A stretch of 20,000 nt of DNA from an uncultured virus (IMG/VR IMGVR_UViG_3300033075_001165) (IMGVR_UViG_3300033075_001165), one strand, 5' to 3'; shown: positions 4,645 to 20,000, counted from the first letter of the stretch. Program-made: numbers and translations. Notes: generated by a model not told the origin, from the letters alone.

Positions 4645-4687
4645 TTTTGTTAGATTTTAAGCATAGTTAAATTATAGAACAATTTTG

Positions 4688-5206: not shown

Positions 5207-5208
5207 TG

Positions 5209-5793: not shown

Positions 5794-5968
5794 TGGTTAA
5801 AAATGAATTTAATATAGTTCTATTTGGGCTATTGCCATAAATCATTTTCATTAATTGACTTGCTTGTCTTGTAGAAATAAGGATTAAATCTTTCTTTACC
5901 CGTTTTTTTAATTTTCGGAGTAATCGTTTACATTTATACCAATCTCTTCTCATTACTTTACCCTCCAA
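5786..5968 (-). CDS. Small basic hypothetical protein
   Basis: Overlaps both neighbours in a tightly packed operon. Confidence 0.45.
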   Translation of the reverse strand: MEGKVMRRDWYKCKRLLRKLKKRVKKDLILISTRQASQLMKMIYGNSPNRTILNSFLTNG

Positions 5969-6527: not shown

Positions 6528-6529
6528 AA

Positions 6530-6850
6530 TTATACAGTGTATTCTTTAGCAAATTGTTCCCACATAAATTTAACGGGGGACTCTTTAATTTCTTTTACAT
6601 TTAGTTTTAATTCTTCAGGAGTGATTTTACCTTGATAAAGAGTTTGTCCAACTACATATTTACCATCTTCTCTTATTTCAATAATTAATACTTGAGAGTT
6701 AGTTGATTCATAAGATTCTGCACCTCTGCAAATAGGGTTTTCATACACTTCACCGCGAAATTCTAATCCTATTTCTTTTCCTTTTTTGTTAATTAATCCA
6801 TGTTCTGTGTAGTTATGGATAATCGTGTTTTCTGGGGTTATTGTTTCCAT
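6530..6850 (-). CDS. Hypothetical protein
   Basis: 106 aa, tightly packed in the operon. Confidence 0.65.
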   Translation of the reverse strand: METITPENTIIHNYTEHGLINKKGKEIGLEFRGEVYENPICRGAESYESTNSQVLIIEIREDGKYVVGQTLYQGKITPEELKLNVKEIKESPVKFMWEQFAKEYTV

Positions 6851-7306
6851 TTATTTTTTAATAATTGTTTTATAATATCGTGAATGATACTGCTCAGGGT
6901 CGGGGGTTGAAATATCATTTTCATCACACCAAAATCTTACTTTTTCTATAAACTCTGAGTATTCTTTTTTACTTAAATCGGCGCTACTTCTTACTTTATG
7001 CCTAATGTAGCTTTTGTCGGGCGTTACAACTTGTTCGGTGTAGCTTAGAAACAAATCAGCGAAAAATTCATGTATCTTATCATTGTTTTCAAAGTGAGCA
7101 AAATATTCAGAGTTTTTGCAAGCTGAATATATTGCCCCCCTTAGATACCCATGCATGTCGATTGAAGGTTTTTTATGCTGTTCTTCAATTATCTCCACAA
7201 AATTCTTTCCTTCAAGTTCTTGCAATTGTTGTTTATAAAGAAAGGGATTATCATACAGCTTTTTGCCGTTGACTACCCTTCCTCTATGTTTAATTACAAG
7301 TTTCAC
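6851..7306 (-). CDS. NinB/Orf-like recombination protein
   Basis: GYLRG...IHEFF...F and C-terminal RSSADLSKKEYSEFIEKVRFWC...I.TPDP motif; start codon uncertain. Confidence 0.7.
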   Translation of the reverse strand: MKLVIKHRGRVVNGKKLYDNPFLYKQQLQELEGKNFVEIIEEQHKKPSIDMHGYLRGAIYSACKNSEYFAHFENNDKIHEFFADLFLSYTEQVVTPDKSYIRHKVRSSADLSKKEYSEFIEKVRFWCDENDISTPDPEQYHSRYYKTIIKK

Positions 7307-7309
7307 AGA

Positions 7310-8080
7310 CTAAAACGGAAGGCCACTTTCTTCATTAGTATCAACACTATCTACACCTTGTATAATAGCATTTTTTATGGCGGGGTCAGCGAGATTAGAT
7401 TTACTGCTATTAACCGTTTCTGTGGCTACTGGCGCATTATTTGTAACGGCTGGTGTTTCGGTAGGGGCGGTGGCGTTACGTTCAAAATAAGCCTTTAAAT
7501 ACTCCTGTAATGTTTTGTCTAATTCAATAGCTTCAAGATTAGTTTCTTCTTTAATCTTTACAGCTTCAAACTTAGGCTCAAAATATTTTGTAGCTCCTTT
7601 TTTAGCGGGAGTGGCTGATTTAACCGTAACAGCACACTCCATAATTTTATTAGCTTTACAGAATTCAATCCAACTTGATAAAGCAGAACCGCGCATTTGA
7701 ATGTTGGCTAATCCTAAATTTTTGCCATCCATTTTAATTCCAATATACACCGATTGACAGTATTCAACTCCGTCTGCCGCCATTTTAGCCTTAATTTGTT
7801 CCCAAGTTCCAGTCATTTCAAGTCCTTTCTTAGAACGAACTGTTATAAGGTCTTTACGAATATCTTTTACTTCATTACTCCAATAACCGCCTTGATTGGC
7901 ATCATTAAACCCTTTTACAGTAGCGCAAGTATCAAGTACTAAAAATGTGAAGGGTAAAGGAACATCAACGTTTTGTTTTAATTCCTTATCATAATATTTA
8001 AAATTTCCGTTACTTCCTGACCATTCGTAAAAACGTGCTGCTGGATTAACTAATTGTTCATTTGGATTACTTCTACTCAT
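7310..8080 (-). CDS. Putative single-stranded DNA-binding protein
   Basis: Globular N-terminal domain, low-complexity linker and acidic tail ending EESGLPF. Confidence 0.6.
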   Translation of the reverse strand: MSRSNPNEQLVNPAARFYEWSGSNGNFKYYDKELKQNVDVPLPFTFLVLDTCATVKGFNDANQGGYWSNEVKDIRKDLITVRSKKGLEMTGTWEQIKAKMAADGVEYCQSVYIGIKMDGKNLGLANIQMRGSALSSWIEFCKANKIMECAVTVKSATPAKKGATKYFEPKFEAVKIKEETNLEAIELDKTLQEYLKAYFERNATAPTETPAVTNNAPVATETVNSSKSNLADPAIKNAIIQGVDSVDTNEESGLPF

Positions 8081-8116
8081 TTTATTTGTTTTTTAGATTA
8101 TTAATTTATCGGTTTA

Positions 8117-8162
8117 TATTTTACAAAGATACTAAAGGTTATTATATTTTACAACTTTATTT
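8117..8162 (-). promoter_or_regulatory. Bacteroidetes-type sigma-A promoter
   Basis: TATCTTTG (TAnnTTTG, -7) at 8124-8131 with TTG about 20 bp upstream; near-copy of 10774-10820. Confidence 0.65.
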
Positions 8163-8169
8163 TAAGATA

Positions 8170-8451
8170 TTAACTAAGTAATTCTAAATCAGTGTAATTA
8201 GTTTTAGTGTTTCGTTTTTTATGGTATTTACGTTGATATTTTTTGCGGGATTTTGTTAATCCTTTCTTCTTATTTCCATGTGTTTTTATAACTCCAAAAA
8301 AGGGTACGTCCAATCTAAATACCTGACCTCTTTTTAACACTCTGTTTATAGGAGAAACATAAGACTGTATTATCATACGAATGGCTTTTTCTTCAAATCT
8401 TGGATTCATCCGCGATAATTTTCTGTAAATATTATCCTTCTTAACTAGCAA
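8170..8451 (-). CDS. HU/IHF-like small basic DNA-binding protein (divergent)
   Basis: Helical N-terminus then VLKRGQVFRLDVPFFGVIK resembling the HU L..G..V...FG.F motif; very basic tail. Confidence 0.5.
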   Translation of the reverse strand: MLVKKDNIYRKLSRMNPRFEEKAIRMIIQSYVSPINRVLKRGQVFRLDVPFFGVIKTHGNKKKGLTKSRKKYQRKYHKKRNTKTNYTDLELLS

Positions 8452-9337
8452 TAGATAGTGTTTTTGTTTGATTTAAAGAATTATTTAATAACAAAGCGTC
8501 TACCTTATCAAAGTTGTTTTGCATTCCTTGTATGGTTAATCTGCAATAATAATCGCGGGTAGTTTGAATATCGGCGTGTCCTAAAAATTCACTTACGTAC
8601 ATATCAGAAGCGCCGTTATCAAGTAGGTGGGTGGCACGGGATGAGCGTAATATATGTGGATAAACTCTTTTATCTATTCCGCAAAGCTTGGCAGTGTTTT
8701 TAATAATATTTTCCACTGATTTAGCGGAATATTGCAATCTACCACCATCACCGTTAAATACATAAACGTGGGGGACAAAATCGGCTAAGTATTGGATAAG
8801 TAGTTCTTTTGTTTGTTCAGGGATTGTAATCACTCTGCTTTTACCATATTTGCTTCCTATTATTGTTATTCTTCTATCGTGGGATAAATGCTCTATTTTA
8901 AGATTAAGTAGTTCTCCGCGCCTTAAAGCGCCATAATAAAGCAAATTAATAATCGCCAGATGTTTTAAATAAATAGGGGCATTACACATAGCCATACATT
9001 CTTGATAACTTAAAATGTTAGGAGTTTTAAGGGGATTGTCGTGATATTCTAAGTTTTTACATTGAGTGTATTTGCCATTAATTTTATAAAGACGTTTTAT
9101 AGATGCTATGAATGAATTTATATAAGCTGGAGAATATTCTTGTTCTTTTAAATAAACAATATAATCTTCAAGTTTTTCTTGGTTGCACAGTAGCACTGAA
9201 ATAGAGTCAAATTTACCCCATTCCATAAACATTCCTATGTTGTTACAATAAGTTTTAGCAGTTTTGAAATTTCCACCAACTGCCAAAATCTTTCGACTAA
9301 ATTTTTTTAAAAATTCTTTATTTTCTTCTTGTAACAT
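8441..9337 (-). CDS. Tyrosine recombinase, putative cassette integrase of the integron-like system
   Basis: Catalytic set intact: LRRGE (R), SKYGKSR (K), HILR (HxxR), LGH, TTRDYY (Y). No IntI-type insertion between the K loop and YVF. Divergent from an attI-like site 45 bp upstream. Confidence 0.9.
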   Translation of the reverse strand: MLQEENKEFLKKFSRKILAVGGNFKTAKTYCNNIGMFMEWGKFDSISVLLCNQEKLEDYIVYLKEQEYSPAYINSFIASIKRLYKINGKYTQCKNLEYHDNPLKTPNILSYQECMAMCNAPIYLKHLAIINLLYYGALRRGELLNLKIEHLSHDRRITIIGSKYGKSRVITIPEQTKELLIQYLADFVPHVYVFNGDGGRLQYSAKSVENIIKNTAKLCGIDKRVYPHILRSSRATHLLDNGASDMYVSEFLGHADIQTTRDYYCRLTIQGMQNNFDKVDALLLNNSLNQTKTLSIAS

Positions 9338-9385
9338 ATTGATTGTTAATTTGTTTTTATATAGAATGCGTTAATAAGAGAGTTA
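9292..9385 (+). repeat. 94-bp direct repeat copy 1: integrase 5' end plus attI-like site (attI-1, crossover G|TT at 9382)
   Basis: 93/94 identical to 15448-15541 (single C/T at 9328 vs 15484); identity stops right after ...AGAGAGTTA. Confidence 0.92.
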
Positions 9386-9425
9386 TGTTCAATTTTATTT
9401 TATTAATTTTTAAAAGCCTACGCAC

Positions 9426-9773
9426 CTATGTTCGTGTATAGTCAATCCCTCTATCATCATAATCCCAATCACTATCAATAGTAAATTTATCAATCATTTC
9501 TGTTTGGTATTCTATTGATTTTTTCAGCCCCTCAATTTGCGTTTTAAGTCCTTTTACTTTCAACTCTCTTTGCTCTTTAATGTATTGTTTTGCTTCATCT
9601 AAACTTTTGAAATATTTATCTGAAACCATACTTAAACAAATTCGCCAATTGTATTCAGTTCCTCTGCTTCTCAACGCTCTAACAAATGCGTATCTGTCTG
9701 TCAGGTTTACGCAATCACGTTCCCATATTCTAACTAAATCATCTTTTACTACATACACTTTGAAAAATTCCAT
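9426..9773 (-). CDS. Cassette 1 hypothetical protein
   Basis: ATG at 9773 (MEFFKVY...) preferred; the upstream in-frame extension to 9818 runs through an inverted repeat. Confidence 0.7.
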   Translation of the reverse strand: MEFFKVYVVKDDLVRIWERDCVNLTDRYAFVRALRSRGTEYNWRICLSMVSDKYFKSLDEAKQYIKEQRELKVKGLKTQIEGLKKSIEYQTEMIDKFTIDSDWDYDDRGIDYTRT

Positions 9774-9834
9774 TTCCTTCGCTTTTTTAAAAATTAATAA
9801 AATAAAACTGCCACACACACTTGCCTACGCACCA

Positions 9835-9914
9835 ACATAACACAACCTAAAATCAAACCGCCATCACCAAACCGCTTATAAAGGCGGTCAGCTTTTAGCT
9901 TGATGCCGTTAGCG
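9835..9914 (+). other. attC-like site 1 (80 bp)
   Basis: ACATAAC-A-CAACCTAAAA..ACCGCC / GGCGGT..TTTTAGCTTG-ATGCC-GTTAGCG; AACATAAC complements GTTATGTT at 9382. Confidence 0.85.
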
Positions 9915-9920
9915 GTAATG

Positions 9921-10703
9921 CTAAAAACCGCATCGCTGACAAGCAATCTCATAATATTTAGGTTCTTTTTCAATCCCGATAAATTTACGGTTAAGTTCTT
10001 TTGCAGCCAAGCAAGTAGTTCCGCTTCCCATAGTGTTATCCATCACATTCATTCCTTCGTTAGTAAATGTACTAATCAACCACTTTAATAAACCTATTGG
10101 CTTTTCTGTTCTATGCTTTGCAATACTTGGATGTATTTTTTCAAAAGTCAATATACTTTTAGGGTGTTTCATATCACCAAGTATTTCTTTATTATCCACA
10201 AAATCAAACGCACCATAGTTATTATTGGCAGTTTGTTTTGGCTTCCCTTTACTGTGGTTTGGTTTTCCTTTTACTTTTTGTGGGTTGTAAATCGGCTGTT
10301 TTCTATAAAATACCATTATATCCTCGTGGCTTCGTAAAGGCATCCTGTTTGCGTTTAAAAATCCACTTGTAAGCACTTTGTCCCAAATCAAATTGTATTT
10401 ATGGTTTTTATCACTAAGCATCATTAATGCAGTAAACTTGTCCTGCCCAAATAAAACAATCGGAGCGTTTGGTTTTACAATTCGCCAATACTGTTCCCAT
10501 AAATTTTCAGGGTCAATCATTATATCATCTTTATTTTGCGTTACCTCATAAGGCAAATCGCAAAGCACCATATCAATACTATTATCAGGTATCAAAGGCA
10601 TAATATCCAAGCAATCGCCTTGAAATAAAGCACTACCGCTAACATCGGCTATATGCAATAGCGGGGTCGGTGCGTTCTTCAACATTTGTTCTACTATCAT
10701 CAT
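9921..10703 (-). CDS. Cassette 2: amino (m6A/m4C) DNA methyltransferase, beta class
   Basis: GDCLD, DLPY (motif IV) N-terminal; H.TEKP and DNTMGSGTT (motif I) C-terminal. Confidence 0.92.
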   Translation of the reverse strand: MMIVEQMLKNAPTPLLHIADVSGSALFQGDCLDIMPLIPDNSIDMVLCDLPYEVTQNKDDIMIDPENLWEQYWRIVKPNAPIVLFGQDKFTALMMLSDKNHKYNLIWDKVLTSGFLNANRMPLRSHEDIMVFYRKQPIYNPQKVKGKPNHSKGKPKQTANNNYGAFDFVDNKEILGDMKHPKSILTFEKIHPSIAKHRTEKPIGLLKWLISTFTNEGMNVMDNTMGSGTTCLAAKELNRKFIGIEKEPKYYEIACQRCGF

Positions 10704-10766
10704 TCGTTCTATATTTTAAGTTTTGTGTTTCAAATCCGCTACTGCACATAGCCGTAGTCGTTATAC
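10637..10766 (+). other. attC-like site 2 (130 bp)
   Basis: CGCTAAC-AT-CGGCTATATGCAATAGCGG / CCGCTACTGCACATAGCCG-TAGTC-GTTATAC; AGCACTACCGCTAAC complements the cassette start GTTAGCGGTAATGCT at 14/15. Confidence 0.9.
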
Positions 10767-10773
10767 ATCATTT

Positions 10774-10820
10774 TATACTACAAAGATAATAAAAGGTTAC
10801 AATATTTAATAACTTTATTT
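10774..10820 (-). promoter_or_regulatory. Bacteroidetes-type promoter pointing into array 1 and the integrase
   Basis: TATCTTTG at 10781-10788; about 45 bp aligns with the 8117-8162 promoter. Confidence 0.65.
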
Positions 10821-10852
10821 GTTAAATGTTTAAAACTTGGTTCATCCGCCGA

Positions 10853-12220
10853 TTAAAACGTTTCATTACTACCACTTGAAATACCCTCTGGAACGTAATC
10901 AGAGTACTTAGAATAGCGTCCGTCAAATCGGGCATATACAGGTCTGGGTGTAACATATCTGCTCTTACCAAGCCCTATTTCAACTACACCCTTTAAACTA
11001 TTGCCGTTTTCATCCACTGGATTCTTATCATAATATTCTGGGCGGTATAACAACAACACTAATATACCAACAGCCTCGATGCCTCCTGAGCCTTTTAAAT
11101 CGCTCATGCGAGGGCGAGGGGGCACACGTCTTTCAACATCGCGGGATAACTGAGATAATAGCACCATGCAAATATTGTATTTCTTAGCGATATTATTTAA
11201 TTGTTGACAACGCAAGTCTAATATCTGTTCATCTGATTTATTTTTTATTTCGTCAGGGGTATTGTTCATTAACTGCAAGTAATCTATAAAGCAAAGGATA
11301 GGGATAGTCATCGGCGTTTTTTTTCGCATCTTTCTAAATTTATTCTCCACATATTGCCAAGTTATACCCGCGGTATCATCTATCAACAGATTGTCTTTAA
11401 ATCGATTTCTTATTCCTTTAATGACGTTTATATCATCTTCGCCAGCGTTCCCGCTTCTAAGTGTAAAAGAATTGATTTCTGTGGCGTTTGATATGATGTT
11501 AGTCATAATCTCAATAGCTGGCATTTCAAGGCTAAAGAAAATAGTTGGCACTCTATCTTCAATAGCATTCTTTTTTAAGATGGTAACAAGAAACGCGGTT
11601 TTGCCCATTGCAGGGCGACCAGCGATTATATTAACCCCCTGCATTATGCCGCCAGTTTTTTCATCAAGTTCTTTTACTCCAAATGAATATCCAACTAAGG
11701 CTTTTTTATTTTCTTTAAGGTCAATTATCCTTTGTAAGGCTTCTTCAAAATATTCATCAATCTGTTTATCTTTAGATACATTATTTATTACCCCTTCAAT
11801 ATCTGTAATCTTGTTTTTAACCTTATCCAACACTTCTTGAACTTCACCATGTTCTGAACTAAAATCCGTATGAGCTTCATAGAGTACGGGTAACATTTTT
11901 CGGCGGACAAGATTATCAAATAGTATTTTCACCTTTGGCTCAGACTTAAGTGACGTGTTCATGTCAAATACAGCTTTGGAGCATAAATCTATTGATGTGT
12001 TTTTAGGATAACCAAGTTTTGTAAGTTCGTTTAAAAGAATAGAGAAATCGGTGGTAATGCTTTTTTGATGATTAAGCTTTATTATTTTATAAACCTGTTG
12101 TTTTATTTTAGAGGTAAAAATATGTTCTGAAACAAGGTGTTCGCAAGTTTCAAATAGGTCGGGCTTAGAACAGTATGTTCCAAGAATTTTATTTTCTATG
12201 TCATCAAGGTTACTGGTCAT
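10853..12220 (-). CDS. dnaB: Replicative DNA helicase, DnaB-like
   Basis: AGRPAMGKT, FFSLEM, IDYLQL, LLSQLSR, PRMSDLKGSGGIE motifs. Confidence 0.95.
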   Translation of the reverse strand: MTSNLDDIENKILGTYCSKPDLFETCEHLVSEHIFTSKIKQQVYKIIKLNHQKSITTDFSILLNELTKLGYPKNTSIDLCSKAVFDMNTSLKSEPKVKILFDNLVRRKMLPVLYEAHTDFSSEHGEVQEVLDKVKNKITDIEGVINNVSKDKQIDEYFEEALQRIIDLKENKKALVGYSFGVKELDEKTGGIMQGVNIIAGRPAMGKTAFLVTILKKNAIEDRVPTIFFSLEMPAIEIMTNIISNATEINSFTLRSGNAGEDDINVIKGIRNRFKDNLLIDDTAGITWQYVENKFRKMRKKTPMTIPILCFIDYLQLMNNTPDEIKNKSDEQILDLRCQQLNNIAKKYNICMVLLSQLSRDVERRVPPRPRMSDLKGSGGIEAVGILVLLLYRPEYYDKNPVDENGNSLKGVVEIGLGKSRYVTPRPVYARFDGRYSKYSDYVPEGISSGSNETF

Positions 12221-12765
12221 GATTTAAAATTTAAATAAGCAAATTCGCCAAAAAGTTCTTTGGCTTTTTTATCATAAGCTAAAGCTGCGTCTAATTCGTT
12301 TTTAAAACATCCTATGTGTATTTTTTTATTTTGAAATCCAATTGATGCAGTCCAAGAATAATATTCTTTTTTTATTCCGTGTTTAAGAGTGTGTTTTGTT
12401 TTTTTTAATGTAACTCCTTTGTAAATGGAGAATAGGTTTTTGTTAAACCCTCTATTAATATTGTTTTGAGAATGAGTTGCTATTCTTAAATTTATTTTCT
12501 GATTATTAACTCCGTTTCTATCGGCATGGTCTACAAATGTTTTTGGGTCTGTTAAATTCATTATAAACCTATGCATTTGCACCATTTGTCGTTTTCCAGT
12601 TAAATTATTTTTTATTCCCGCAGTAGCGTAAAAACAACTATCTCCCTTGATGGCATTCCAATTATACATATTTACTTTAAAAAAATCTTCGTCATCAACT
12701 TGAGCAAATTTTGGAGCGTCCTTGTGCTTGTTTTCTTTAAATTTGTTTAATTTTATTAATTTCAT
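12217..12765 (-). CDS. HNH homing endonuclease with C-terminal AP2 domain
   Basis: AQVDDED, MHRFIM, VDHADRNGVNNQKINLR; AP2-like W.ASI...IGCF..E.DAALAYD..A..LFGEFAYLNF. ATG at 12765 preferred over 12876. Confidence 0.9.
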   Translation of the reverse strand: MKLIKLNKFKENKHKDAPKFAQVDDEDFFKVNMYNWNAIKGDSCFYATAGIKNNLTGKRQMVQMHRFIMNLTDPKTFVDHADRNGVNNQKINLRIATHSQNNINRGFNKNLFSIYKGVTLKKTKHTLKHGIKKEYYSWTASIGFQNKKIHIGCFKNELDAALAYDKKAKELFGEFAYLNFKS

Positions 12766-12888
12766 ATTTAAAATGTTCCCTACTCCACTAAAGGCTACAC
12801 CGCTACCCTTATGGGTATTGGACAATAATGTTTCGGGAATATTTTTAATGTTTTTCATAGAACGATGTAGCGGCACAAAGATGCTAAA

Positions 12889-13254
12889 TTATTCTTTTTG
12901 AAAAAAATTATTTACTACTGAATTTTCTTTGTTATTAACAATTTTATTGACCTCAACAAACCAAACTCCCATCATTTTTTGTTTCCAGTTTTTCACTTGG
13001 TTTCCTTTAGAATCTTTCCATCCAGCTATGTCATAGTAATTAAAAGCCTTTTCTGCTGAAACTTCACTATACCCTTTCTCTTTAAAATAAGCTTTTACTT
13101 CTTCAAGTGTCGGTGGAATAAACTTAGGCTTCACTTTCTTATTATAAACACCAAGTTTAGTGAGTTGAATATTCCCATCTACTACTATATATTTAAAGAT
13201 AGTACCGTTCATTACGAACTCAGTTGATTCGGGGATTATAATAGGCTTGCTCAT
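12889..13254 (-). CDS. Replication initiator/replisome-organizer-like C-terminal domain protein
   Basis: FIPPTLEEV..YF...FNYY...GW.....VKNWK motif; upstream of DnaB. Confidence 0.65.
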   Translation of the reverse strand: MSKPIIIPESTEFVMNGTIFKYIVVDGNIQLTKLGVYNKKVKPKFIPPTLEEVKAYFKEKGYSEVSAEKAFNYYDIAGWKDSKGNQVKNWKQKMMGVWFVEVNKIVNNKENSVVNNFFQKE

Positions 13255-13601
13255 TACTCCTCAATTATAGGATTCTGAATAGTTACTTTGTTTTCTACTG
13301 GGGGTACTTGTTCTGCTAAATCACTTATAATACCTTTTTGCAACGATTTAAGCTCACTTATCAACCTTACTACATTATGCTTATGCGCTTTGTAATGCTC
13401 GTTGTAAAGAGGTCTATTGGATTCTTTTACTTTGTTTTGATAATCCAGTGTATTCTCAGCAACAATTTGAGCAAAAGAAACGGCGGCTAATGCGTTTTTG
13501 GTGGAATCAAGTTCGCTCATATCTTCGTCAAAAGAGATGCTAAATGTTTTGTCGTCATATTCTATTGAGAAATTTAGCGACCCTGTTAGTTTTTGTGTCA
13601 T
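13254..13601 (-). CDS. Hypothetical protein
   Basis: 115 aa, TAATG coupling with the next gene. Confidence 0.7.
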   Translation of the reverse strand: MTQKLTGSLNFSIEYDDKTFSISFDEDMSELDSTKNALAAVSFAQIVAENTLDYQNKVKESNRPLYNEHYKAHKHNVVRLISELKSLQKGIISDLAEQVPPVENKVTIQNPIIEE

Positions 13602-13602
13602 A

Positions 13603-15150
13603 TTATTTGGTTTTTCTATTGTTTATTTCATCAAATGCTTTTATTGCCTGTGCCTTACTTACAAATCCATCTACTTTATATCCCTTTATCCTTAATAAAT
13701 TTACCTGTGCCTCACTTGCTGGTTGAGATAAAAATATTTCATTAATCTGTTGTTTTGTGTAAGCTACATCTATAATATTAAATCCCCAATTTTTTATTGC
13801 ATTAAGCTGGGCTAAAGTTGCAGGCTCACTCATCTTAGGAGAAAGGTTTAGTTTAACACGGGGTAAAATTAATAAATTTACATGTTCATCTTTGTCTCTG
13901 TTAGTATCTATTTTTGTTAATCTTATTTCCCTGTCCTCAATTAATTTTTGTCTTTTTTCGGCTGATATAAAACATCTGTCTTGAGGTTCTTTTTCTTTTT
14001 CAATTTCGTGACAATTAATTAAATTATGTTTAGTGGTTAAATCGATAAAATCTAATACCGTCATTTTTTGACCAAATCTTCTAACGTAATTATCGTCTTT
14101 TAAACGAGTGCCGCGCCCTAATTGTTGAATGTATCGTGCCTTAGATTTAGTGGGTGCTACACATCCAATTATGCCAGTATTCGGCGCGTCAAAACCACAT
14201 GTTAAAATATTTACGTTTACTAAAACATCAATTTTACCTTCTTTGTATGCTTTAATTTTATGGCTTCTATCGCCAGTTAATTGTTCATCACTACTTACGG
14301 CTTCGGCATTCACACCTTTCATTTTGAATGATTCAACCAAGTCCAAAGCGTGTAAAATATCTACTGCAAAAAATATACCCTGTCTTCCATTACCATACTT
14401 AATATAAGAATCAGCCACCAAATTATTTCGAGACAAACAATTTACAGTTCCAGCTAATTCTTTTTGATTAAACTCCCCTCCTAATGTTTTTACTTTATCA
14501 AGACTAACGTTTGTTTTTACACGCACACAATCTATTTCACACAAATAACCTTCATCTATAGCTGTTTTAATTTCGTATTCGTAAACTTTCTCGGTAAATA
14601 AATTGCTGAGTTGTAATCCGTCAAGACGTTCGTCGGTTGCTGTTATACCGAGAAGTAATTTAGGGTTGAAATATTGGGCTGATTTAATGAATGTGGGACT
14701 CATAAAAAGATGAGCTTCGTCACATATAACAAATTCCATTTCATCAGGGTCAAATAGATGAAGGTTTCTGTGTAACGATTGAGCTGAACACATCACAATA
14801 TTACCATGTGTTTGTTTTACATCAGCCTTTACAAGTCCCATTTTAAATTCTCCGCCCGCAAAAACACCGCCATCTTTAATGTAATCAACAAATCCAAGCT
14901 CTTCTATGTGATTGGATAGGCTATCGTCAAAACGCTCTCTAATAAAGGCTAATGAGCTTTGGTCTATTAATTCTTCAGTATGGGTAATCCAAATTCCTCG
15001 TGTATAACCAAGCCTTTCAATTAGCTTAACAACTGAAAAAGTTTTACCACTTCCCACAGGTAACACCGCAAGTTGTTTATCGGAGCCTCTGTTTAGAGCT
15101 TCAATAACCGCTTCGTGAAACGTATGTTGATATGGGCGGATAGTTTTCAA
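13603..15150 (-). CDS. Superfamily 2 (DEAH) DNA helicase
   Basis: RPYQ, PVGSGKT, CDEAH, GITAT, GFDAP, QQLGRGTR; TTG start abutting the upstream stop. Confidence 0.93.
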   Translation of the reverse strand: MKTIRPYQHTFHEAVIEALNRGSDKQLAVLPVGSGKTFSVVKLIERLGYTRGIWITHTEELIDQSSLAFIRERFDDSLSNHIEELGFVDYIKDGGVFAGGEFKMGLVKADVKQTHGNIVMCSAQSLHRNLHLFDPDEMEFVICDEAHLFMSPTFIKSAQYFNPKLLLGITATDERLDGLQLSNLFTEKVYEYEIKTAIDEGYLCEIDCVRVKTNVSLDKVKTLGGEFNQKELAGTVNCLSRNNLVADSYIKYGNGRQGIFFAVDILHALDLVESFKMKGVNAEAVSSDEQLTGDRSHKIKAYKEGKIDVLVNVNILTCGFDAPNTGIIGCVAPTKSKARYIQQLGRGTRLKDDNYVRRFGQKMTVLDFIDLTTKHNLINCHEIEKEKEPQDRCFISAEKRQKLIEDREIRLTKIDTNRDKDEHVNLLILPRVKLNLSPKMSEPATLAQLNAIKNWGFNIIDVAYTKQQINEIFLSQPASEAQVNLLRIKGYKVDGFVSKAQAIKAFDEINNRKTK

Positions 15151-15423
15151 TTATACTTTAAACTCAATAGGTGAAACATTAATTGACACTATAATTTCTT
15201 CTTTTTGTAATTGTGATAAGAAAGCATTTACTAAATGTGTCTTGTATGTGTTATGGTTTTTGTTTGATAATTTCCAGCATTTCTTTTTTACATCCATCGG
15301 CAGTTCAATTTTCTTCACTTCTTCTATCCAATCATAAATAAGATGCCCGCTTGAGCAAGTTCCATGTTCATAGAATGATTTTAATCCATGTGCGATTAAT
15401 TGTGTCCGCCAATCAATTTTCAT
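15151..15423 (-). CDS. Hypothetical protein
   Basis: 90 aa, abuts the helicase start. Confidence 0.65.
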   Translation of the reverse strand: MKIDWRTQLIAHGLKSFYEHGTCSSGHLIYDWIEEVKKIELPMDVKKKCWKLSNKNHNTYKTHLVNAFLSQLQKEEIIVSINVSPIEFKV

Positions 15424-15493
15424 TTATTAGACAAATCATTGTTTTTGTTCGACTAAATTTTTTTAAAAATTCTTTATTTTCTTTTTGTAACAT
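15413..15493 (-). pseudogene. Integrase N-terminal remnant (26-aa ORF MLQKENKEFLKKFSRTKTMICLINEN)
   Basis: First 15 codons match the integrase start (one E>K change); the stop overlaps the start region of 15151-15423. Confidence 0.7.
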
Positions 15494-15541
15494 ATTGATT
15501 GTTAATTTGTTTTTATATAGAATGCGTTAATAAGAGAGTTA
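15448..15541 (+). repeat. 94-bp direct repeat copy 2: attI-like site 2 (crossover G|TT at 15538)
   Basis: 93/94 identical to 9292-9385; diverges after GTTA into cassette 3. Confidence 0.92.
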
Positions 15542-15550
15542 GCGGTAATA

Positions 15551-15937
15551 CTAATACAAGTCCTCCGAGAATAATCTGTTACCTCTAATTTCTTTAATAT
15601 CCATTACCTGATTTTCTCTCAATGCAATAATTAGTGCTTCTTCACGGCTTACAAATCTGTTTTTAGAAGTAAGAAAGCCTTGTTCATTTTCTCCGCTTTC
15701 AGCATCTCGCAAACCAGTTACAGCACATTTGGTATAAATACATTGCCCGTGTCTATGTCCGCTAAATACTAATCCTGTTGGGCAGTTTTTGGGGTTTGTG
15801 CTTTCAAATGGTATTTCCTTTTTAATCGGAATTTCTTTATACCAAACAGCAGCACATATTATTCGCTCCGAACCCGTACTACCGCTAACAGCACATAGGC
15901 AAAAAAGCCGTTTCAGTTTCATAAGAATATTTTTCAT
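15551..15937 (-). CDS. Cassette 3 hypothetical phage protein
   Basis: IICAA.W...G.RH..C...QGFLTSKNRFVSREEA..IA...Q....LFSEDLY resembles a conserved phage family; candidate starts (15946/15937/15922) all lie inside attC3. Confidence 0.8.
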   Translation of the reverse strand: MKNILMKLKRLFCLCAVSGSTGSERIICAAVWYKEIPIKKEIPFESTNPKNCPTGLVFSGHRHGQCIYTKCAVTGLRDAESGENEQGFLTSKNRFVSREEALIIALRENQVMDIKEIRGNRLFSEDLY

Positions 15938-16007
15938 AAGTATCAAATTTATCGTTTCAAATTAAGTTTTCGTTACGGCTTCTTCGCCTATCTGCAAAAC
16001 GTTAGCA
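15883..16007 (+). other. attC-like site 3 (125 bp)
   Basis: CGCTAAC-A-GCACATAGGCAAAAAAGCCGT / ACGGCTTCTTCGCCTATCTGC-AAAAC-GTTAGCA; left flank complements the cassette start at 13/14. Confidence 0.9.
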
Positions 16008-16937
16008 ACAAGCGGGTGAAGTGCTTCGATTAAGCGTTGTGCAAGTTTGACCATAATTATTTTTTTGCCATCCCACGTTGGTTTTTTCAAAACCATTTAG
16101 GAAAGAAAAAATATGTTCTACTATTCCAACAGTCCAACCATCACCAATTAAGTTACCTGCTTGTGCTTTATTTAAGTTCCGTGTATATCCTTCGGGTATA
16201 TTATGCAACCTTTCAAGTTCTGTTTGTGTGCAATATCGTACCCCTTTTGTTTCGTCCATTTTTTCATCCGTGTAAATTATAGTTGTCATTCCAGTTGTTG
16301 CGTATCGGTGCAACATATATCTTTGGTTTGCATCTCGGCCGCAACTTGTATTTAAACAAGTATGTTTTTTCTTGTCAGAATATCCGTATTCCAAAACATC
16401 GTTTAAGTATATTTTTTGGTCTTTAGGTTGTGGTATCGCACATTTTCTATTGCCAAATAAATCTCTATATTCGGGGCCTATATTAGTCCAAAACAATCTA
16501 TCTCTTAATGCTCCACTTACTCTACTTCCGCAAAGTCTTACAGGTTCGGTTCCTAATAAATCGGTTATTGTATTATATCCTAAATCGTCCATAATCACAT
16601 TTTCAAGTAAATAGTAAGTCGGTTTAGTTTCTTCCAGTAATCGAATGTATTCGTAAAATAACATTGATTTCATACCTTTTAACCCGTCTCTTACACTATT
16701 TGCCCTACTAAAGTCCTGGCACGGACTGCCGCCAATCAATAAATCAATTTTAGGCAAATCAATACCTTTTACTTTGGTTACATCTCCTATTTGTTTTGTG
16801 TTCGGGAAATTATCTAAAGTGCATTGTATTGCGTGTTTTTTAATCTCACTTGCAAAATAGTTTTCAATATTAAAACCTAAATTGTTAAGCGCAATTTGTC
16901 CGCAACTCATACCATCAAATAAACTTAATACGTTCAT
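16002..16937 (-). CDS. Cassette 4: C5-cytosine DNA methyltransferase
   Basis: LSLFDG (motif I), GGSPCQ (IV), ENV (VI), R.RLFW (VIII), GDGW (X); stop codon lies in the GTTA core. Confidence 0.92.
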   Translation of the reverse strand: MNVLSLFDGMSCGQIALNNLGFNIENYFASEIKKHAIQCTLDNFPNTKQIGDVTKVKGIDLPKIDLLIGGSPCQDFSRANSVRDGLKGMKSMLFYEYIRLLEETKPTYYLLENVIMDDLGYNTITDLLGTEPVRLCGSRVSGALRDRLFWTNIGPEYRDLFGNRKCAIPQPKDQKIYLNDVLEYGYSDKKKHTCLNTSCGRDANQRYMLHRYATTGMTTIIYTDEKMDETKGVRYCTQTELERLHNIPEGYTRNLNKAQAGNLIGDGWTVGIVEHIFSFLNGFEKTNVGWQKNNYGQTCTTLNRSTSPACC

Positions 16938-17025
16938 AAAATAATTTTTTAAAATCCCCCCCTCAAAAAAAATAATTATTACAGTTGTGTTTCAATTTAG
17001 CGGTCGGAGGTTAAAGTCCGCCAGT

Positions 17026-17124
17026 TGCTAACACGTTGTATATGTCAGTTTTGCCAATTGGCATTGTGCTTTAAATGAAAGTATGTGCGTGGCAAAACCG
17101 AACACATACAACTATTCGTTATAA
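17026..17124 (+). other. attC-like site 4 (99 bp)
   Basis: TGCTAAC-AC-GTTGTATATGTCAGTTTTGCCA / TGGCAAAACCGAACACATACAAC-TATTC-GTTATAA; left flank complements the cassette start at 13/15. Confidence 0.9.
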
Positions 17125-17367
17125 GCCATTTTGAAAATCGACCTCGTGAAATTCTTTGAAGTAATCTAAAAATTGTTTTCTCGCCCAATCGTGTTCACCT
17201 TTGCTCTCAATTTCTAAATCTTCTTTCAATAAGTCTATAACAAGTGCGTTGCCTCTAAATGACATTTTGATAATGTCACCTACTTCGCTATTTTCTACAG
17301 CATCACCGTAATCGTTTTCATTAAACCAATTTTTAGTTAGGTTATGATAATAAGTTGATTGTCCCAT
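17119..17367 (-). CDS. Cassette 5 small acidic hypothetical protein
   Basis: 82 aa; stop TAA lies in the GTTA core. Confidence 0.7.
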   Translation of the reverse strand: MGQSTYYHNLTKNWFNENDYGDAVENSEVGDIIKMSFRGNALVIDLLKEDLEIESKGEHDWARKQFLDYFKEFHEVDFQNGL

Positions 17368-17409
17368 TTTGATAGTTTAAATTGTTATGCCAAACACGAA
17401 TAAAACGGC

Positions 17410-17505
17410 TTATAACAGTGGTTTGGCAAAATACCGCCATAAGCATTTGTACTAAATTTCAACATTCTGCAAGGCGGTACTTCGCCAAGCCACCAAACGT
17501 TACCT
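17410..17505 (+). other. attC-like site 5 (96 bp)
   Basis: TTATAAC-A-GTGGTTTGGCAAAATACCGCC / GGCGGTACTTCGCCAAGCCAC-CAAAC-GTTACCT; left flank complements the cassette start at 14/15. Confidence 0.9.
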
Positions 17506-17584
17506 GCAAGTGCTACGATAGTGCTTCGTATCAAACTTTCGTGTTCAAAAATTTTAAATAAAAAGCCACCGCACTTTTGTTTTT

Positions 17585-18421
17585 TCAAAACAATTTGGTT
17601 TTTTGTTCTCGTTCCCATTCAAGTATTCGTTTTAATCCTTTATTGTAGTATTCTTTTTCTTTTTCCATTACAATATATTTTCTGTTAGTTTGTAAACAAG
17701 CTATTGCAGTTGTAAATACTCCAGCAGTATTATCAAGAACAATATCATTTTCATCGGTGTATGTTTTAATTAAATACTCAAATAGTTCAGTTGGCTTTTG
17801 TGTTGGGTGTATTGCTTTTGTGCCAATCACATTTGGGTATTCTAAAACATTGTGTGGAAATCCTGTAAACGCTTCGTATTCTACTCCAATTTGATTAGGT
17901 CTTGCACCCATCATTTCTCCGTGTGCCACAGCAGTTACTTTTTTGTTTCCAATACTAACTATTCCTTGTGGGTTATATCTCATTCTTTTTTCTCCAAGTT
18001 GTGATATATGTCCCATTGGTGCTTTGCTAAATACACAACATTCTTCAATAGCTGTCATTGGTCTATTTTTGCTATGTTGCCATCCATTCGGTTTGCTTTT
18101 CTTCCAATACCAACAATACTTAAATAGTTTAAAATTTGAGTTTATCAATACCGTTGTAAATGGCTGTGAAGCTGTCAGTATTATTACTCCGTTTGGCTTT
18201 ATTATCCTTTCGTATTGTTCCCAAAGTTTTTCAAATGGCAGTATCACATCCCATTTACAAGCAATAGTTCCATACGGCAAATCACAAAGTATCATATCAA
18301 TACTTTCATCTGCTATCAATGGCATCAATTCCAAACAATCTCCTAAGTGTTCACTACTTCGGTTAGTGCTTATGCTATACCATTCTTTTTCTTCGTCTGT
18401 ATCTAAATTAAAATTTCCCAC
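17585..18421 (-). CDS. Cassette 6: amino (m6A/m4C) DNA methyltransferase, beta class
   Basis: GDCLE, DLPY, HPTQKP, variant motif I DNTAGVFTT. Start uncertain: in-frame GTG at 18421, and the frame stays open to TTG at 18568. Confidence 0.88.
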   Translation of the reverse strand: MGNFNLDTDEEKEWYSISTNRSSEHLGDCLELMPLIADESIDMILCDLPYGTIACKWDVILPFEKLWEQYERIIKPNGVIILTASQPFTTVLINSNFKLFKYCWYWKKSKPNGWQHSKNRPMTAIEECCVFSKAPMGHISQLGEKRMRYNPQGIVSIGNKKVTAVAHGEMMGARPNQIGVEYEAFTGFPHNVLEYPNVIGTKAIHPTQKPTELFEYLIKTYTDENDIVLDNTAGVFTTAIACLQTNRKYIVMEKEKEYYNKGLKRILEWEREQKTKLF

Positions 18422-18488
18422 GCTTTTTTTATTTAAAATTTTTGTTTTGTTCTTCGTATCAAGTTTATCGTTAATAAACCGCACCAGC

Positions 18489-18564
18489 AGGTAACAAGGT
18501 ATATACGCAATTTTTCCACCGCTAAACCCAACGCACAACTGCGTATATACCCGAAACGTTAGTA
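18489..18564 (+). other. attC-like site 6 (76 bp)
   Basis: AGGTAAC-AA-GGTATATACGCA / TGCGTATATACC-CGAAAC-GTTAGTA (perfect 12-bp stem); left flank complements the cassette start at 13/15. Confidence 0.9.
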
Positions 18565-18568
18565 GCAA

Positions 18569-18832
18569 TTATTTTTTGCTACGTTCTGCACAAAATTTAC
18601 AGTTTCCTTTATGTGTCATCATTTGTGAGTAACCAACGCCTGATATTAAGTATTGGCAACTGTCAAATTCTATTATTGATATTTGATAGCCATTAACTTC
18701 TACTGCTGTTTTAAATATTTTTGAGCGTTCTTCGGCTCTATCTATTTCATCACAACCGCAAAAAATAACAGCTACTAACAGCACATAAGCAAGAGCAAAG
18801 CAATTGCGGTAATTTGAGATTTTTGTTTTCAT
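18569..18832 (-). CDS. Cassette 7: small putative lipoprotein
   Basis: FALAYVLLVAVIFCGC signal/lipobox-like; D.CQY...THKGNC..C motif. Confidence 0.75.
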   Translation of the reverse strand: MKTKISNYRNCFALAYVLLVAVIFCGCDEIDRAEERSKIFKTAVEVNGYQISIIEFDSCQYLISGVGYSQMMTHKGNCKFCAERSKK

Positions 18833-18904
18833 AATAATATTTAGTTTTAAGATTAAATTTTTGTTTTTAAGGCTTTGCCCTCGCTTATCTGCGATACGTT
18901 AACG
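18773..18904 (+). other. attC-like site 7 (132 bp)
   Basis: TACTAAC-A-GCACATAAGCAAGAGCAAAGC / GCTTTGCCCTCGCTTATCTGC-GATAC-GTTAACG; left flank complements the cassette start at 20/22. Confidence 0.92.
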
Positions 18905-18910
18905 GCAATT

Positions 18911-19255
18911 CTAATCTGCTCCCCACCGCTCGGATACATAATTCATTATATCTTTTAATTCGTCTGCTACAATGGTTGTCTGCCAGCTTCCATAAGTCAA
19001 CACCTCACAGCACCATTTTGAGGATTGCTTATCCCACCAACAATATCCGCAAAAGTTCCATCCACTATATTGTGCCGATAAATCTTTGCCCTTTATTTCT
19101 GTTGCTACTTTTTCATCTATGCAATGGTCAAAGTTGCTCATTACCGTTTCTCCGAAATCCTCAAAATGCTCAGGCAACCGCACATTAGAACTGCCGTTAA
19201 CAAGGGCTTTACTCAATGCCTCTGTTTCGTTTGTATTTGAAATTTTGTTTTCCAT
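18911..19255 (-). CDS. Cassette 8 hypothetical protein (Trp/acidic-rich)
   Basis: 114 aa; ATG inside attC8 after an A-rich tract. Confidence 0.75.
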   Translation of the reverse strand: MENKISNTNETEALSKALVNGSSNVRLPEHFEDFGETVMSNFDHCIDEKVATEIKGKDLSAQYSGWNFCGYCWWDKQSSKWCCEVLTYGSWQTTIVADELKDIMNYVSERWGAD

Positions 19256-19325
19256 TTTATGTTTTATTTTAAGTTGATAATTTCGTTTTCAAAGTCGGCA
19301 CTAAATAAAGCCCCAACCGTTAAAC
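19195..19325 (+). other. attC-like site 8 (131 bp)
   Basis: CGTTAAC-AA-GGGCTTTACTCAATGCC / GGCACTAAATAAAGCCC-CAACC-GTTAAAC; left flank complements the cassette start at 17/18. Confidence 0.92.
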
Positions 19326-19601
19326 CTCCCAATATCCTTTAAAAAAATCATTAATTTTTGTGTAAGGAATAACATCCTCAGCGTCTTTATAGATAGCTTG
19401 TATGTCTAATATAGCTCTGTTTTTGTTGTTAGACCAGCAGTCTTCACAAATGTCATACATACCTTCAAAAGATATTTTGTTCGGCATGGGGCGATTACAG
19501 CAGTTACAATCTGAGTGTATGCCAGCCTCTATTGCTCTGCTTACAAAGGCTTCCACTTCATCTGTATCGCGGAATATGGGGTTATTTATCGGGCGGTTCA
19601 T
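19320..19601 (-). CDS. Hypothetical Zn-finger-like protein (resident gene, no attC seen)
   Basis: CNCC...CEDC; its stop TAA forms the GTTA of attC8. Confidence 0.65.
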   Translation of the reverse strand: MNRPINNPIFRDTDEVEAFVSRAIEAGIHSDCNCCNRPMPNKISFEGMYDICEDCWSNNKNRAILDIQAIYKDAEDVIPYTKINDFFKGYWEV

Positions 19602-19622
19602 AATTATCGGTTTTAATTGTTA

Positions 19623-19649
19623 TACGAGGGTGTTTGCAAAAAGGTTACA
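19623..19649 (-). promoter_or_regulatory. Putative ECF-sigma-type promoter pointing toward array 2
   Basis: Minus strand TGTAAC-N17-CGTA; shares TGTAACCTTTTT with 4144-4169. Confidence 0.5.
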
Positions 19650-19896
19650 AAAATCTGTAATTAATTTTTTCAAGAATTAATAATTTATCAGCGTAAGTAA
19701 AATTATTCCATATTTTATTCACTTCGCTTATTGTTGGCTTAGGCTGTAAATTTTTAACCAACTTTCTATAATTCATTCTGCCGTTTTTTGTTAGTTTACC
19801 ATCTTCAATCCACCCTAAAATTTTTGTCACTGCTTCTGAGGGGTTGTTTCCATCAAACCAATATTCTTTTACAAATTTTTTCGCTGGTGAGTTCAT
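19645..19896 (-). CDS. Hypothetical protein
   Basis: 83 aa ORF co-oriented with the operon. Confidence 0.6.
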   Translation of the reverse strand: MNSPAKKFVKEYWFDGNNPSEAVTKILGWIEDGKLTKNGRMNYRKLVKNLQPKPTISEVNKIWNNFTYADKLLILEKINYRFL

Positions 19897-20000
19897 GTTT
19901 AATGCCCTAAATAAATCAAAGACGCTCTAAAATCATTAGCTCCTTCAAATTTATTGCGGGTGGCTAAGAACGTTTGTTTATCAATAGTATGGTCATCTTT

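Follow-up and report, generated by a model that had tools for sequence, protein, structure and literature searches.

Two integron-like cassette arrays with genes inverted relative to their hairpin sites in a Bacteroidota phage, most likely served by a Xer-like recombinase

How can integron-like gene cassettes be maintained in a phage genome when all of their genes point against the direction in which the arrays run? This question is raised by a stretch of 20,000 nt from an uncultured virus (IMG/VR IMGVR_UViG_3300033075_001165), which is called the window here and always means the full length. It contains two cassette arrays (9383–10760 and 15539–19319) and, to the left of array 1, the gene of a tyrosine recombinase on the minus strand (8441–9337). 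The initial annotation had described all cassette genes as antisense to the integron direction and had proposed an inverted logic of expression. The explanation that we favour, and to which we would give a probability of about three in four, is that these are two integron-like arrays of a Bacteroidota phage, that the hairpin site is inverted relative to the gene, and that the arrays would most likely be served by the phage's own Xer-like recombinase. It is derived from comparisons of sequences.

Cassettes, genes and hairpin sites

The cassette boundaries were defined with a script that is blind to open reading frames (ORFs) and that proceeds from a GTTA to the reverse complement of the first 9 nt, through a paired stem and to the next GTT. 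It placed the boundary G at 9382, 9908 and 10760 in array 1 (two cassettes) and at 15538, 16001, 17118, 17499, 18558, 18898 and 19319 in array 2 (six cassettes), and returned exactly the boundaries that had been drawn in the initial annotation. The box that is the reverse complement of the cassette's own first 9 nt lies 70–127 nt before the next G; all 9 nt match in seven of the eight cassettes, and 8 of 9 in the remaining one. Past 19319 the script found no complementary box. The backbone ORF at this end (19320–19601, minus strand, 93 aa), the stop codon of which is the TTA of the terminal GTTA, probably represents what was originally the right half of the insertion site.

The longest ORF is on the minus strand in all eight cassettes, as had been stated before. 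The earlier observation that six stop codons lie at the GTT end was reproduced as well: the stops at 16002 and 17119 are the TTA of GTTA, those at 9921, 15551 and 18911 are at 13 nt, and the stop at 18569 is at 11 nt. The remaining two are 44 nt (9426) and 86 nt (17585) away from the G.

Cassette 1 of array 1 (9383–9908, plus strand) contains an ORF of 115 aa without an assigned family (9426–9773, minus); its hairpin site is at 9833–9916, and the covariance model R1 introduced below gave a hit at 9833–9919 on the minus strand with 40.1 bits. The cassette also has an internal inverted repeat, TTTTATTTTATTAATTTTTAAAA, around the ORF (9390–9427 and 9783–9835), and the direct repeat GCCTACGCACC stands at either end of the ORF; the relative L073 has an identical AAAGCCTACGCAC just past a gene end. 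Cassette 2 (9909–10760, plus) encodes an N6/N4 DNA methyltransferase (9921–10703, minus; PF01555, 1.3e-27; phrog_67), and the start codon lies inside the loop of the hairpin site (10635–10768; R1, 78.5 bits).

The six cassettes of array 2 are likewise given by their plus-strand coordinates. The first (15539–16001) carries ORF 15551–15946 on the minus strand, the one cassette ORF that matches phrog_839 (another matches phrog_19356 weakly), with its site at 15881–16009. The second (16002–17118) encodes a C5 cytosine methyltransferase (16002–16937, minus; PF00145, 8.8e-31; site 17024–17126), and the third (17119–17499) an ORF of 82 aa (17119–17367, minus; site 17408–17507, R1 94.3 bits). An N6/N4 methyltransferase (17585–18568, minus; PF01555, 6.7e-23) is found in the fourth (17500–18558; site 18487–18566), so that Pfam identifies three of the eight cassette ORFs as DNA methyltransferases. 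The reading frame of this last gene is open through its own hairpin site to the next boundary, there is no ATG ahead of the conserved domain, and the true start is uncertain. Cassettes five (18559–18898; ORF 18569–18832, minus, 87 aa; site 18771–18906) and six (18899–19319; ORF 18911–19255, minus, 114 aa; site 19193–19327) complete the array, which ends with the G at 19319.

When the plus-strand shadow ORFs were compared with the collected loci by tblastn, four of five gave no hit, and the fifth matched only opposite methyltransferase genes. The count of eight minus-strand genes out of eight is not independent of the strand bias of the whole phage, which weakens it if it is taken alone. What goes beyond chance is the orientation of the genes relative to the polarity of the sites, which follows from the contrast between phages and chromosomes described in the next section.

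All eight sites of the window fold as hairpins. Each of them has the features by which attC sites are recognized, namely imperfect inverted repeats, outer boxes of the RYYYAAC/GTTRRRY type and inner L boxes, and the G|TT cassette boundaries together with an attI-like sequence next to the 5′ end of the recombinase gene agree with the definition of an integron. The window folds have a one-sided spacer of 4–5 nt and single mismatches, which is not the canonical pattern of extrahelical bases on the bottom strand that set the choice of strand. The structure was analyzed with 44 distinct sites, of which the window contributed 8, close relatives 4 and IMG/VR arrays 32 (in all, the window and 19 other loci of the phage type); they were aligned on the gene strand. 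RNAalifold did not return a consensus structure for this alignment, and the consensus was written by hand from single folds; it consists of 5 box pairs, a one-sided spacer of 4 nt and 21 stem pairs. In the 44 sites, 81.3% of the cells expected to pair are paired, compared with 60.3% after shuffling (none of 500 shuffles reached the observed value) and 40–47% when the partner was slid. Both sides have changed in 19 of the 26 pairs. Searches of Rfam gave no family at the gathering score. A simple hairpin scanner recovered all eight sites, but with about six hits per shuffled 20 kb; it was dropped and replaced by the covariance model.

Next to the crossover, a G.T pair is found in each of the 42 rows that have letters there, and two more pairs are mostly G.T. 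On the opposite strand these pairs would be C.A mismatches. The gene strand forms the more stable hairpin in all eight window sites and in 40 of the 44 distinct sites, with mean values of -16.9 versus -13.6 kcal/mol. The initial annotation had named, as an outcome that would overturn it, that the plus strand is the recombined one; the plus strand is not the better-folding strand.

Gene orientation in phages and host chromosomes

The covariance model R1, which within the window hits only the eight known sites and all of them on the minus strand, was used to compare the orientation of genes in phages and chromosomes. For each hit with E <= 0.001, the ORFs of the two strands were compared over the 350 nt of cassette body by the inner box, and the strand of the one that covered more of this stretch was scored; a strict version of the tally added a margin of 60 nt to the same rule. 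Hits were obtained in 24 of the 87 phage sources searched. By the loose rule, 92 of these 107 hits are co-sense, i.e. the gene is on the folding strand, 13 are classical, 1 has no ORF and 1 is at an edge. Flavobacteriaceae chromosomes gave 61 hits at 32 loci in 30 genomes, with 6 co-sense, 49 classical, 4 without an ORF and 2 at an edge. By the strict rule, 85 of 106 evaluable phage sites are co-sense, 2 classical and 19 ambiguous, whereas 2 of 59 evaluable chromosomal sites are co-sense, 43 classical and 14 ambiguous (Fisher's exact test on the strict counts, p = 8e-30). Counted by source, the sites are mostly co-sense in 21 of the 24 phage sources and mostly classical in 28 of the 32 chromosomal loci. 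A tally of this kind had been suggested as a check, and it came out as predicted. Because the phage and chromosomal tallies are opposite, the reversed polarity is specific for phages.

The positions of the stop codons also differ. An ORF of at least 45 aa on the folding strand that stops within 17 nt of the crossover was found for 69 of the 107 phage sites and for 3 of the 61 chromosomal sites. The TAA of TAA|C itself provides the stop codon in 22 of the 69 cases; in the other 47 the distance is 8–17 nt (mode 13). In the chromosomal cassettes the stop codon abuts the inner box instead, mostly at 3–12 nt. The start codon lies within the ORF's own site in 49 of the 92 co-sense phage cases, usually in the loop of the site class of about 130 nt, and within 70 nt past the site in 35 more. 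With about half of the genes starting in this way, each cassette may carry its own start region and not depend on read-through alone, and the start codons in the loops suggest a second role of the site as a portable start region.

The same organization was found in other phages. A 15-nt junction common to the window and the Polaribacter phage P12002L occurs in 111 IMG/VR loci, and a true hairpin lies beside the match in 20 of them. In 15 of these 20 loci the ORF-blind script delineated 42 cassettes, and the longest ORF is reversed in 40; if only exact boxes are counted, it is reversed in 32 of 33. Five of these loci encode a short recombinase (26–35% identity to the window enzyme), which is on the gene strand and left of the array. 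In the four that could be read completely (265–278 aa), the start codon is 45–60 nt from a GTTA crossover, a distance that is also found in the window's own family, and the TIGR02249 model of integron integrases gives hits in two stretches that stay under the cut-off.

Two cultured phages were read by eye and with R1; for one of them, Leef_1, the boundary script had given a doubtful site of 180 nt. In P12002L all R1 hits are on the gene strand among methyltransferase genes (3 at E <= 0.001, 8 at E <= 0.1), and two copies of a 66-nt attI-like repeat (29175 and 37201) are each at the head of an array. In the Polaribacter phage Leef_1 a GTTAGC crossover lies about 55 nt upstream of the integrase gene gp38, and there is at least one bounded cassette (gp33), on the strand of the integrase.

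Among the chromosomes, Psychroflexus maritimus (Flavobacteriaceae) has 18 R1 sites with E <= 0.01, which are clustered on small contigs. One of these (G001:C54, L355) has arrays at 264–404 and 8972–13192 and a recombinase ORF at 2133–3986; G001:C61 and C63 also carry sites. The ORF has 617 aa, of which the C-terminal half is IntI-like and the N-terminal 330 aa match no Pfam family. TIGR02249 gives 214.6 bits (below the cut-off of 265), and the protein aligns to the window enzyme without the additional domain. The P. maritimus cassettes have the classical direction, and a HigB/HTH pair, TPR proteins and propeller proteins are among the cargo. At E <= 1e-5, R1 has a hit in 75 of 151 sampled genomes of the same family. 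The hits are often one or two per genome and scattered on large contigs, and thus the element is common in Flavobacteriaceae also outside obvious arrays.

The recombinase, the insertion sites and competing explanations

The recombinase gene (8441–9337, minus) encodes a Xer/XerA-like tyrosine recombinase of 298 aa (PF00589, 5.3e-27), with an additional weak match to SAM_4. The top NCBIfam model is of the XerA type (155.3 bits at a cut-off of 220), and the closest PDB chains are archaeal XerA and then XerD. TIGR02249 gives 80.9 bits in two stretches and does not reach its cut-off of 265. In the alignment with the Vibrio integrase IntI4 (VchIntIA, 2a3v), residues 50–176 correspond to chain residues 44–173 and residues 208–264 to 247–303. 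The 31 residues between them (177–207) stand opposite 73 residues of the chain (174–246), which is where the IntI additional domain lies. Messier and Roy are said to have made this domain the defining feature of IntI in 2001. Because the additional domain is missing and the score is below the family cut-off, the enzyme does not belong, by its sequence, to the integron integrases. The catalytic residues R139, K163, R231, H254 and Y264 are invariant in 35 relatives. About 80 relatives with 49–83% identity are known, and they are metagenomic without exception. No relative above 38% identity was found among 50,697 phage records and none above 35% among the best 80 loci from one genome each of 185,579 species; a scan of viral contigs for the recombinase as a single protein gave 15 pattern matches, none of which was confirmed.

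Each array of the window begins at one copy of a 94-nt attI-like sequence on the plus strand. Copy 1 (9292–9385) consists of the initial 46 nt of the recombinase gene and the 48 nt upstream of it, ends with GTTA and has its crossover G at 9382; copy 2 (15448–15541, crossover G 15538) has no adjoining recombinase gene. The copies are 99% identical, and the flanks part after GTTA in both. R1 gives no site at either copy. Copy 2 thus retains 46 nt of the recombinase 5′ end, and an unrelated ORF (15151–15423) is on its left; a contig of another sample (run X5) spans 15151–15477 and backs this odd flank. The segment 9383–15538 is bounded like a giant cassette that contains replication genes.

The regions upstream of the recombinase genes share the motif ATGCGTTwA..AGTT in nine relatives (L001, L067–L071, L073–L075) and diverge directly past GTT; the tenth close relative, L072, is too short to display attI. 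The exact 28-nt attI pattern had no match in viral contigs. L074 and L075 have the same recombinase and attI, split after GGAGTT, carry one different cassette each and rejoin at CGTTATGCAC. In seven of ten contigs of the relatives, the contig ends 36–207 nt from the recombinase start, as would be expected where assemblies break because a site varies or is repeated.

Contigs of four public runs were placed on the window; they are DNA and show presence only, not strand or transcript ends, and differences in contig depth and uncovered stretches were excluded from the evidence. One contig (run X4, record 12) covers exactly 15538–16003. In a contig of run X9 the match begins at 15538 and is preceded by 399 unrelated letters. 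In a contig of run X5 the hairpin of array 1 cassette 2 is joined to another next cassette, which begins with GTTGCCAGCAAT. The RNA runs X15–X20 contain only 0.06–0.17 of the sampled words.

Two further observations concern the insertion site. Six relatives (L067, L069, L071, L073, L074 and L075) have a small inverted repeat past the attI crossover or, in L074 and L075, past the single cassette. It consists of GTTRYRC, 22–43 nt and the complement ending with AAC, the arms are perfect over 14 bp in L071, and no hairpin site follows beyond it in these relatives; the empty insertion site itself may fold. Another contig of run X4 (depth 3.8) links 8096 to 10779 via 28 other letters and is a phage variant without the recombinase, a 93-aa ORF and array 1. 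The segment that it lacks is bracketed by a 29-nt repeat (8134–8162 and 10792–10820).

Leftward transcription would follow from the orientation of the genes and from promoter-like repeats at the distal array ends, i.e. at the level of motifs. The repeat TTGTAACCTTT..TATCTTTG (10781–10820, minus; repeat families D6 and D7) lies just distal to array 1, and a copy at about 19640 just distal to array 2; copies at 4160 and 8134 precede other gene blocks, and TATCTTTG is present in two copies. TAnnTTTG matches occur at 10781 and 8124 on the minus strand. Scans for sigma-70 promoters (46 found, 51.5 expected) and terminators (6 found, 7.2 expected) were uninformative. Apart from one sigma-70-like match in attI, nothing pointed to rightward transcription. 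The idea of an inverted logic of expression, in which the newest cassette is the last in the transcript, is supported in its structural part, and the leftward read-through that it supposes would fit this geometry: the polarity from attI to attC is on the plus strand, the genes are on the minus strand, the recombinase gene is downstream of array 1, and the attI-proximal cassette comes last. The enzyme, which the initial annotation had called the integrase, is not one of the integron type.

In the mechanism that we propose, a cassette extends from one G|TT crossover to the next and ends in an attC-like bulged hairpin, which is built of an AAC/GTT box pair, a one-sided spacer of 4–5 nt at the crossover, a long stem and a variable loop. 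The phage gene lies on the best-folding strand, the other way round than in classical integrons and at chromosomal Flavobacteriaceae sites, and cassette genes, recombinase gene and replication genes share one direction. The stop codon abuts, or sits in, the box of about 11 nt at the crossover, and in about half of the cases the start codon is in the hairpin loop. A new cassette would land just upstream of the recombinase gene and would become the last in the leftward row of genes. The cassette genes would be reversed because the recombinase gene is co-oriented with a one-way gene row and has attI at its 5′ end; inserted cassettes would come to lie upstream, where only genes reversed relative to their sites are co-oriented with the row. 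The recombinase would catalyse the exchange between attI and attC on a folded single strand, with replicative resolution, and transcription would run leftward from the promoter-like repeats at the distal array ends through the cassettes into the recombinase gene. The cargo, with three DNA methyltransferases in eight cassettes, may serve the escape from host restriction.

Tyrosine recombinases, and IntI in particular, cleave the strand that has the binding arm 5′ of the central region. Given this rule and the position of the boundary, the gene strand would also be the cleaved strand, at AA|C.

It is unlikely that the arrays are instead passive attC-site clusters without an integron integrase (CALINs) that come from host arrays or are moved by host enzymes, with the recombinase as a lysogeny integrase and the attI-like sequence as its attP. 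Such a view would fit the P12002L arrays, which have no recombinase at all, and the occurrence of the site family in the host family (75 of 151 sampled genomes). It would also fit the phage CALINs and the IntI1 recombination of a P12002L site in the available text of Qi 2023 (PMC9892861), and the interpretation of flavophage integrases as temperate signs in that of Bartlau 2021 (PMC8776804). However, the gene polarity of the phages is opposite to that of the chromosomes, so that the phage arrays are not simple copies, and none of nine window cassette proteins matches the 32 chromosomal loci. At least three divergent lineages of recombinases have their start 45–60 nt from a cassette crossover, and the insertion polymorphism between L074 and L075 is exactly at attI. 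The lack of a close relative in phage records or species genomes, including any prophage-borne relative above 35% identity among the best 80 loci, argues against a lysogeny integrase.

It is quite improbable that the polarity was misassigned, i.e. that the crossover is in the other box and that the arrays consist of textbook cassettes on the minus strand, which run leftward from an attI at the right end without any inversion. The gene strand indeed reads ORF, stop, RYYYAAC-type box, hairpin and GTTRRRY-type box, as in classical cassettes. That the first 9 nt of a cassette are complementary to its inner box had been taken as proof of polarity; this argument was withdrawn, because it fits a crossover in either outer box and is compatible with both models, and the polarity thus rests on other lines. 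First, the duplicated conserved sequence by the recombinase, the attI-like repeat, ends at GTTA and has no hairpin, while the right ends of the two arrays (10760 and 19319) share nothing. Second, the one-cassette difference between L074 and L075 is bounded at the spacer-side box, and contigs end at 15538 and 16003. Third, between phage loci 6 of 19 homology ends are within 6 nt of the spacer-side crossover, compared with 0 of 19 for the other box. In addition, the leftmost cassette of each array would be without a hairpin under the alternative polarity. Chromosomal sites of the same asymmetry have their genes on the other strand, so that there is an inversion relative to the site whichever box is cut.

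That the hairpins are elements of regulation or of the RNA (terminators, processing sites or promoter-stem-loop units of the T4 type) shuffled by homologous recombination is very improbable: the better-folding strand is the sense strand, G.T could be G.U in an mRNA and start codons lie in the loops of the long site class (49 of 92 inside the site), but the breakpoints are precise at G|TT and not spread along the repeat, changes in the outer box are matched at the far end of its own cassette, which would be purposeless in a linear transcript, the stems vary in sequence yet pair and leave little homology for recombination, terminators are not above chance and the chromosomal sites are antisense to their genes.

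The preferred explanation, integron-like arrays with inverted genes and a recombinase of the phage's own, has to be held against several results that weigh against it. Besides the loss of the complementarity argument, the homology ends that support the polarity are few (6 of 19), and those of the chromosomes are undecided (14 versus 10 of 89). The chromosomal polarity was taken from the shared asymmetry as scored by R1, a model that was trained with 44 phage sites, although the ORF strand was not used in training. By the loose rule 13 of the 107 phage sites are classical; most of these are near-ties with shadow ORFs, and 2 stay so under the strict rule. Three of the eight cassette ORFs (9426–9773, 17119–17367 and 18911–19255) have no homologue in the libraries or loci searched and are called from length and layout alone. 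The Bacteroidota -7 motif TAnnTTTG occurs in the window less often than expected by chance (19 versus 34.2), so that the reading of the repeats as promoters is weak. Finally, tblastn found no recombinase in P12002L, and it follows that a trans-acting enzyme of a host or of a co-infecting phage can serve such arrays and might do so here.

A more far-reaching version of the preferred explanation is offered only tentatively. It is possible that Bacteroidota phages have a mirror-image integron, in which the coding strand recombines and which would act as a fast gene-swapping device for anti-restriction and counter-defence, with an enzyme that is devoid of the domain held essential for hairpin recombination. 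If the coding strand were the recombining one, exchange with the site family of the hosts would be possible, and expression would occur only in the phage orientation. If the direction of replication is that of transcription, the hairpins would be on the lagging-strand template and on the non-template strand. Cassette shuffling would then be coupled to infection, in contrast to sedentary chromosomal integrons, for which damping has been reported.

Comparison with known systems and the phage backbone

The window has many features in common with classical integrons: attI at the 5′ end of the recombinase gene, G|TT bounds, imperfect palindromes of the RYYYAAC/GTTRRRY type, an inner box that pairs with the first bases of the cassette, one strand that folds better, and one gene per cassette tight against the site. 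It differs from them in that the recombinase lacks the IntI additional domain and fails the TIGR02249 cut-off, in that the genes are on the folding (bottom-type) strand and point toward the recombinase gene, and in the one-sided unpaired spacer, the phage replication module and the two attI copies. Classical cassettes are sense cassettes read from the promoter Pc, whereas all eight are reversed in the window and there is no arrangement of the Pc type.

With eight attC-like sites and a recombinase under the IntI cut-off, the window agrees with the definition of a CALIN (at least two attC sites, no integrase of the IntI class nearby), but this label would hide the adjacent recombinase and attI. 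The phage CALINs of P12002L have the same site family, methyltransferase cassettes, sites on the gene strand and a junction motif of at least 15 nt in common with the window; the window phage differs by its own recombinase and its attI. In the available text of Qi et al. 2023 (PMC9892861), phage CALINs including P12002L are described and two sites of 'divergent directions' are mentioned, while neither a partner recombinase nor a rule of polarity is named there and the words 'antisense', 'opposite' and 'Xer' do not occur. The exchange of anti-restriction genes proposed there for phage cassettes fits the cargo of the window.

The rAID-1 elements (Ross et al., 10.1101/471110) are, according to the available text, arrays of Bacteroidales that have integron-like repeats and a recombinase of the XerD family and that lie 3′ of its gene. 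They are defined there by a 5′ XerD-like recombinase with at least 44% identity to the Bacteroides fragilis enzyme, followed by at least two co-directional genes of low GC content. Both systems are Bacteroidota arrays with integron-like intergenic repeats, without IntI and with genes that are co-directional with the recombinase. However, rAID-1 elements, as described in that text, are chromosomal, carry immunity genes and have the array 3′, whereas the array of the window is upstream, not downstream, of the recombinase gene, belongs to a phage and carries methyltransferases. In the inverted-integrase integrons of the Treponema group, in the available text of PMC4889954, the integrase and the cassette genes also have the same direction, but there the integrase gene is flipped toward attI and the cassettes are sense to attC, whereas in the window the arrangement of recombinase and attI is classical and the genes are flipped.

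The sites were also compared with pdif modules, which are double-stranded sites of 28 bp (two arms of 11 bp around a centre of 6 bp), alternate in orientation and are served by the host XerCD. The window sites are directly oriented hairpins of 70–135 nt with a phage-encoded enzyme; their box of about 11 nt and spacer of 5–6 nt are merely reminiscent of pdif. Elements of the CTX phage type integrate the whole phage genome at dif by means of the host XerCD and folded single strands. By analogy, a Xer-type enzyme without the IntI domain would act in the window on a folded hairpin that resembles two arms, with one strand exchanged; the difference is that the phage enzyme would move single-gene cassettes within an array.

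An inversion of phage cassettes relative to host cassettes of the same site family was not stated in the literature searched. Concerning Bacteroidetes, the available text of the IntegronFinder 2.0 publication (PMC9024848) gives only In0 elements from earlier work and one complete integron, in Salinibacter. The system in the window is a variant of the known integron logic: it is integron-like, has an enzyme without the IntI domain and an inverted cassette polarity, and is specific for phages. The signature domain of IntI may be dispensable for a cassette system of the attC type, which bears on the origin of integrons from Xer-like enzymes. The flip of the genes of whole arrays between types of replicons that share one site family offers a natural experiment on the reason for the classical orientation, i.e. 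expression from Pc or the exposure of strands in replication. Some flavophage 'integrases' may be cassette recombinases rather than temperate markers; in the available text of Bartlau et al. 2021 (PMC8776804), integrases are signs of a temperate lifestyle, and the words 'integron' and 'cassette' are absent from that text. The methyltransferase cargo, with 3 of 8 cassettes here and members of the same family in P12002L and the IMG/VR arrays, points to a rapid exchange of anti-restriction genes among environmental phages. For tests at the bench, cultured systems are available with the Polaribacter phages Leef_1 and P12002L.

The backbone of the window belongs to a phage. From about 2800 to 20000 all long ORFs are on the minus strand, and the genes amount to a module of phage replication and recombination. 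Family searches identified a RusA-like resolvase (5209–5793), a NinB-like protein (6851–7306), a DnaB-like helicase (10853–12220), an HNH endonuclease (12217–12876) and a DEAD/SNF2-type helicase (13603–15150). The G+C content of the window is 29–37%, and a megablast search of 8100–20000 against phage records gave a single match of 102 nt. The phage is one of Bacteroidota, probably with a flavobacterial host.

Two backbone replacements were seen in contigs from three runs. At 12199–13081, the region of the HNH endonuclease gene, 214 letters replace 881 in the contigs of other samples, and at 13914–15151, which is a part of the helicase gene, 1232 letters replace 1236. These replacements are mosaicism at the level of strains, and the HNH gene resembles a facultative homing element. 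At the left side of the window, an ORF on the plus strand (1709–2203) contains six tandem 9-nt units (1757–1822) that encode collagen-like Gly-X-Y repeats; it is probably a structural protein of the fibre type at the edge of a late region with the opposite orientation.

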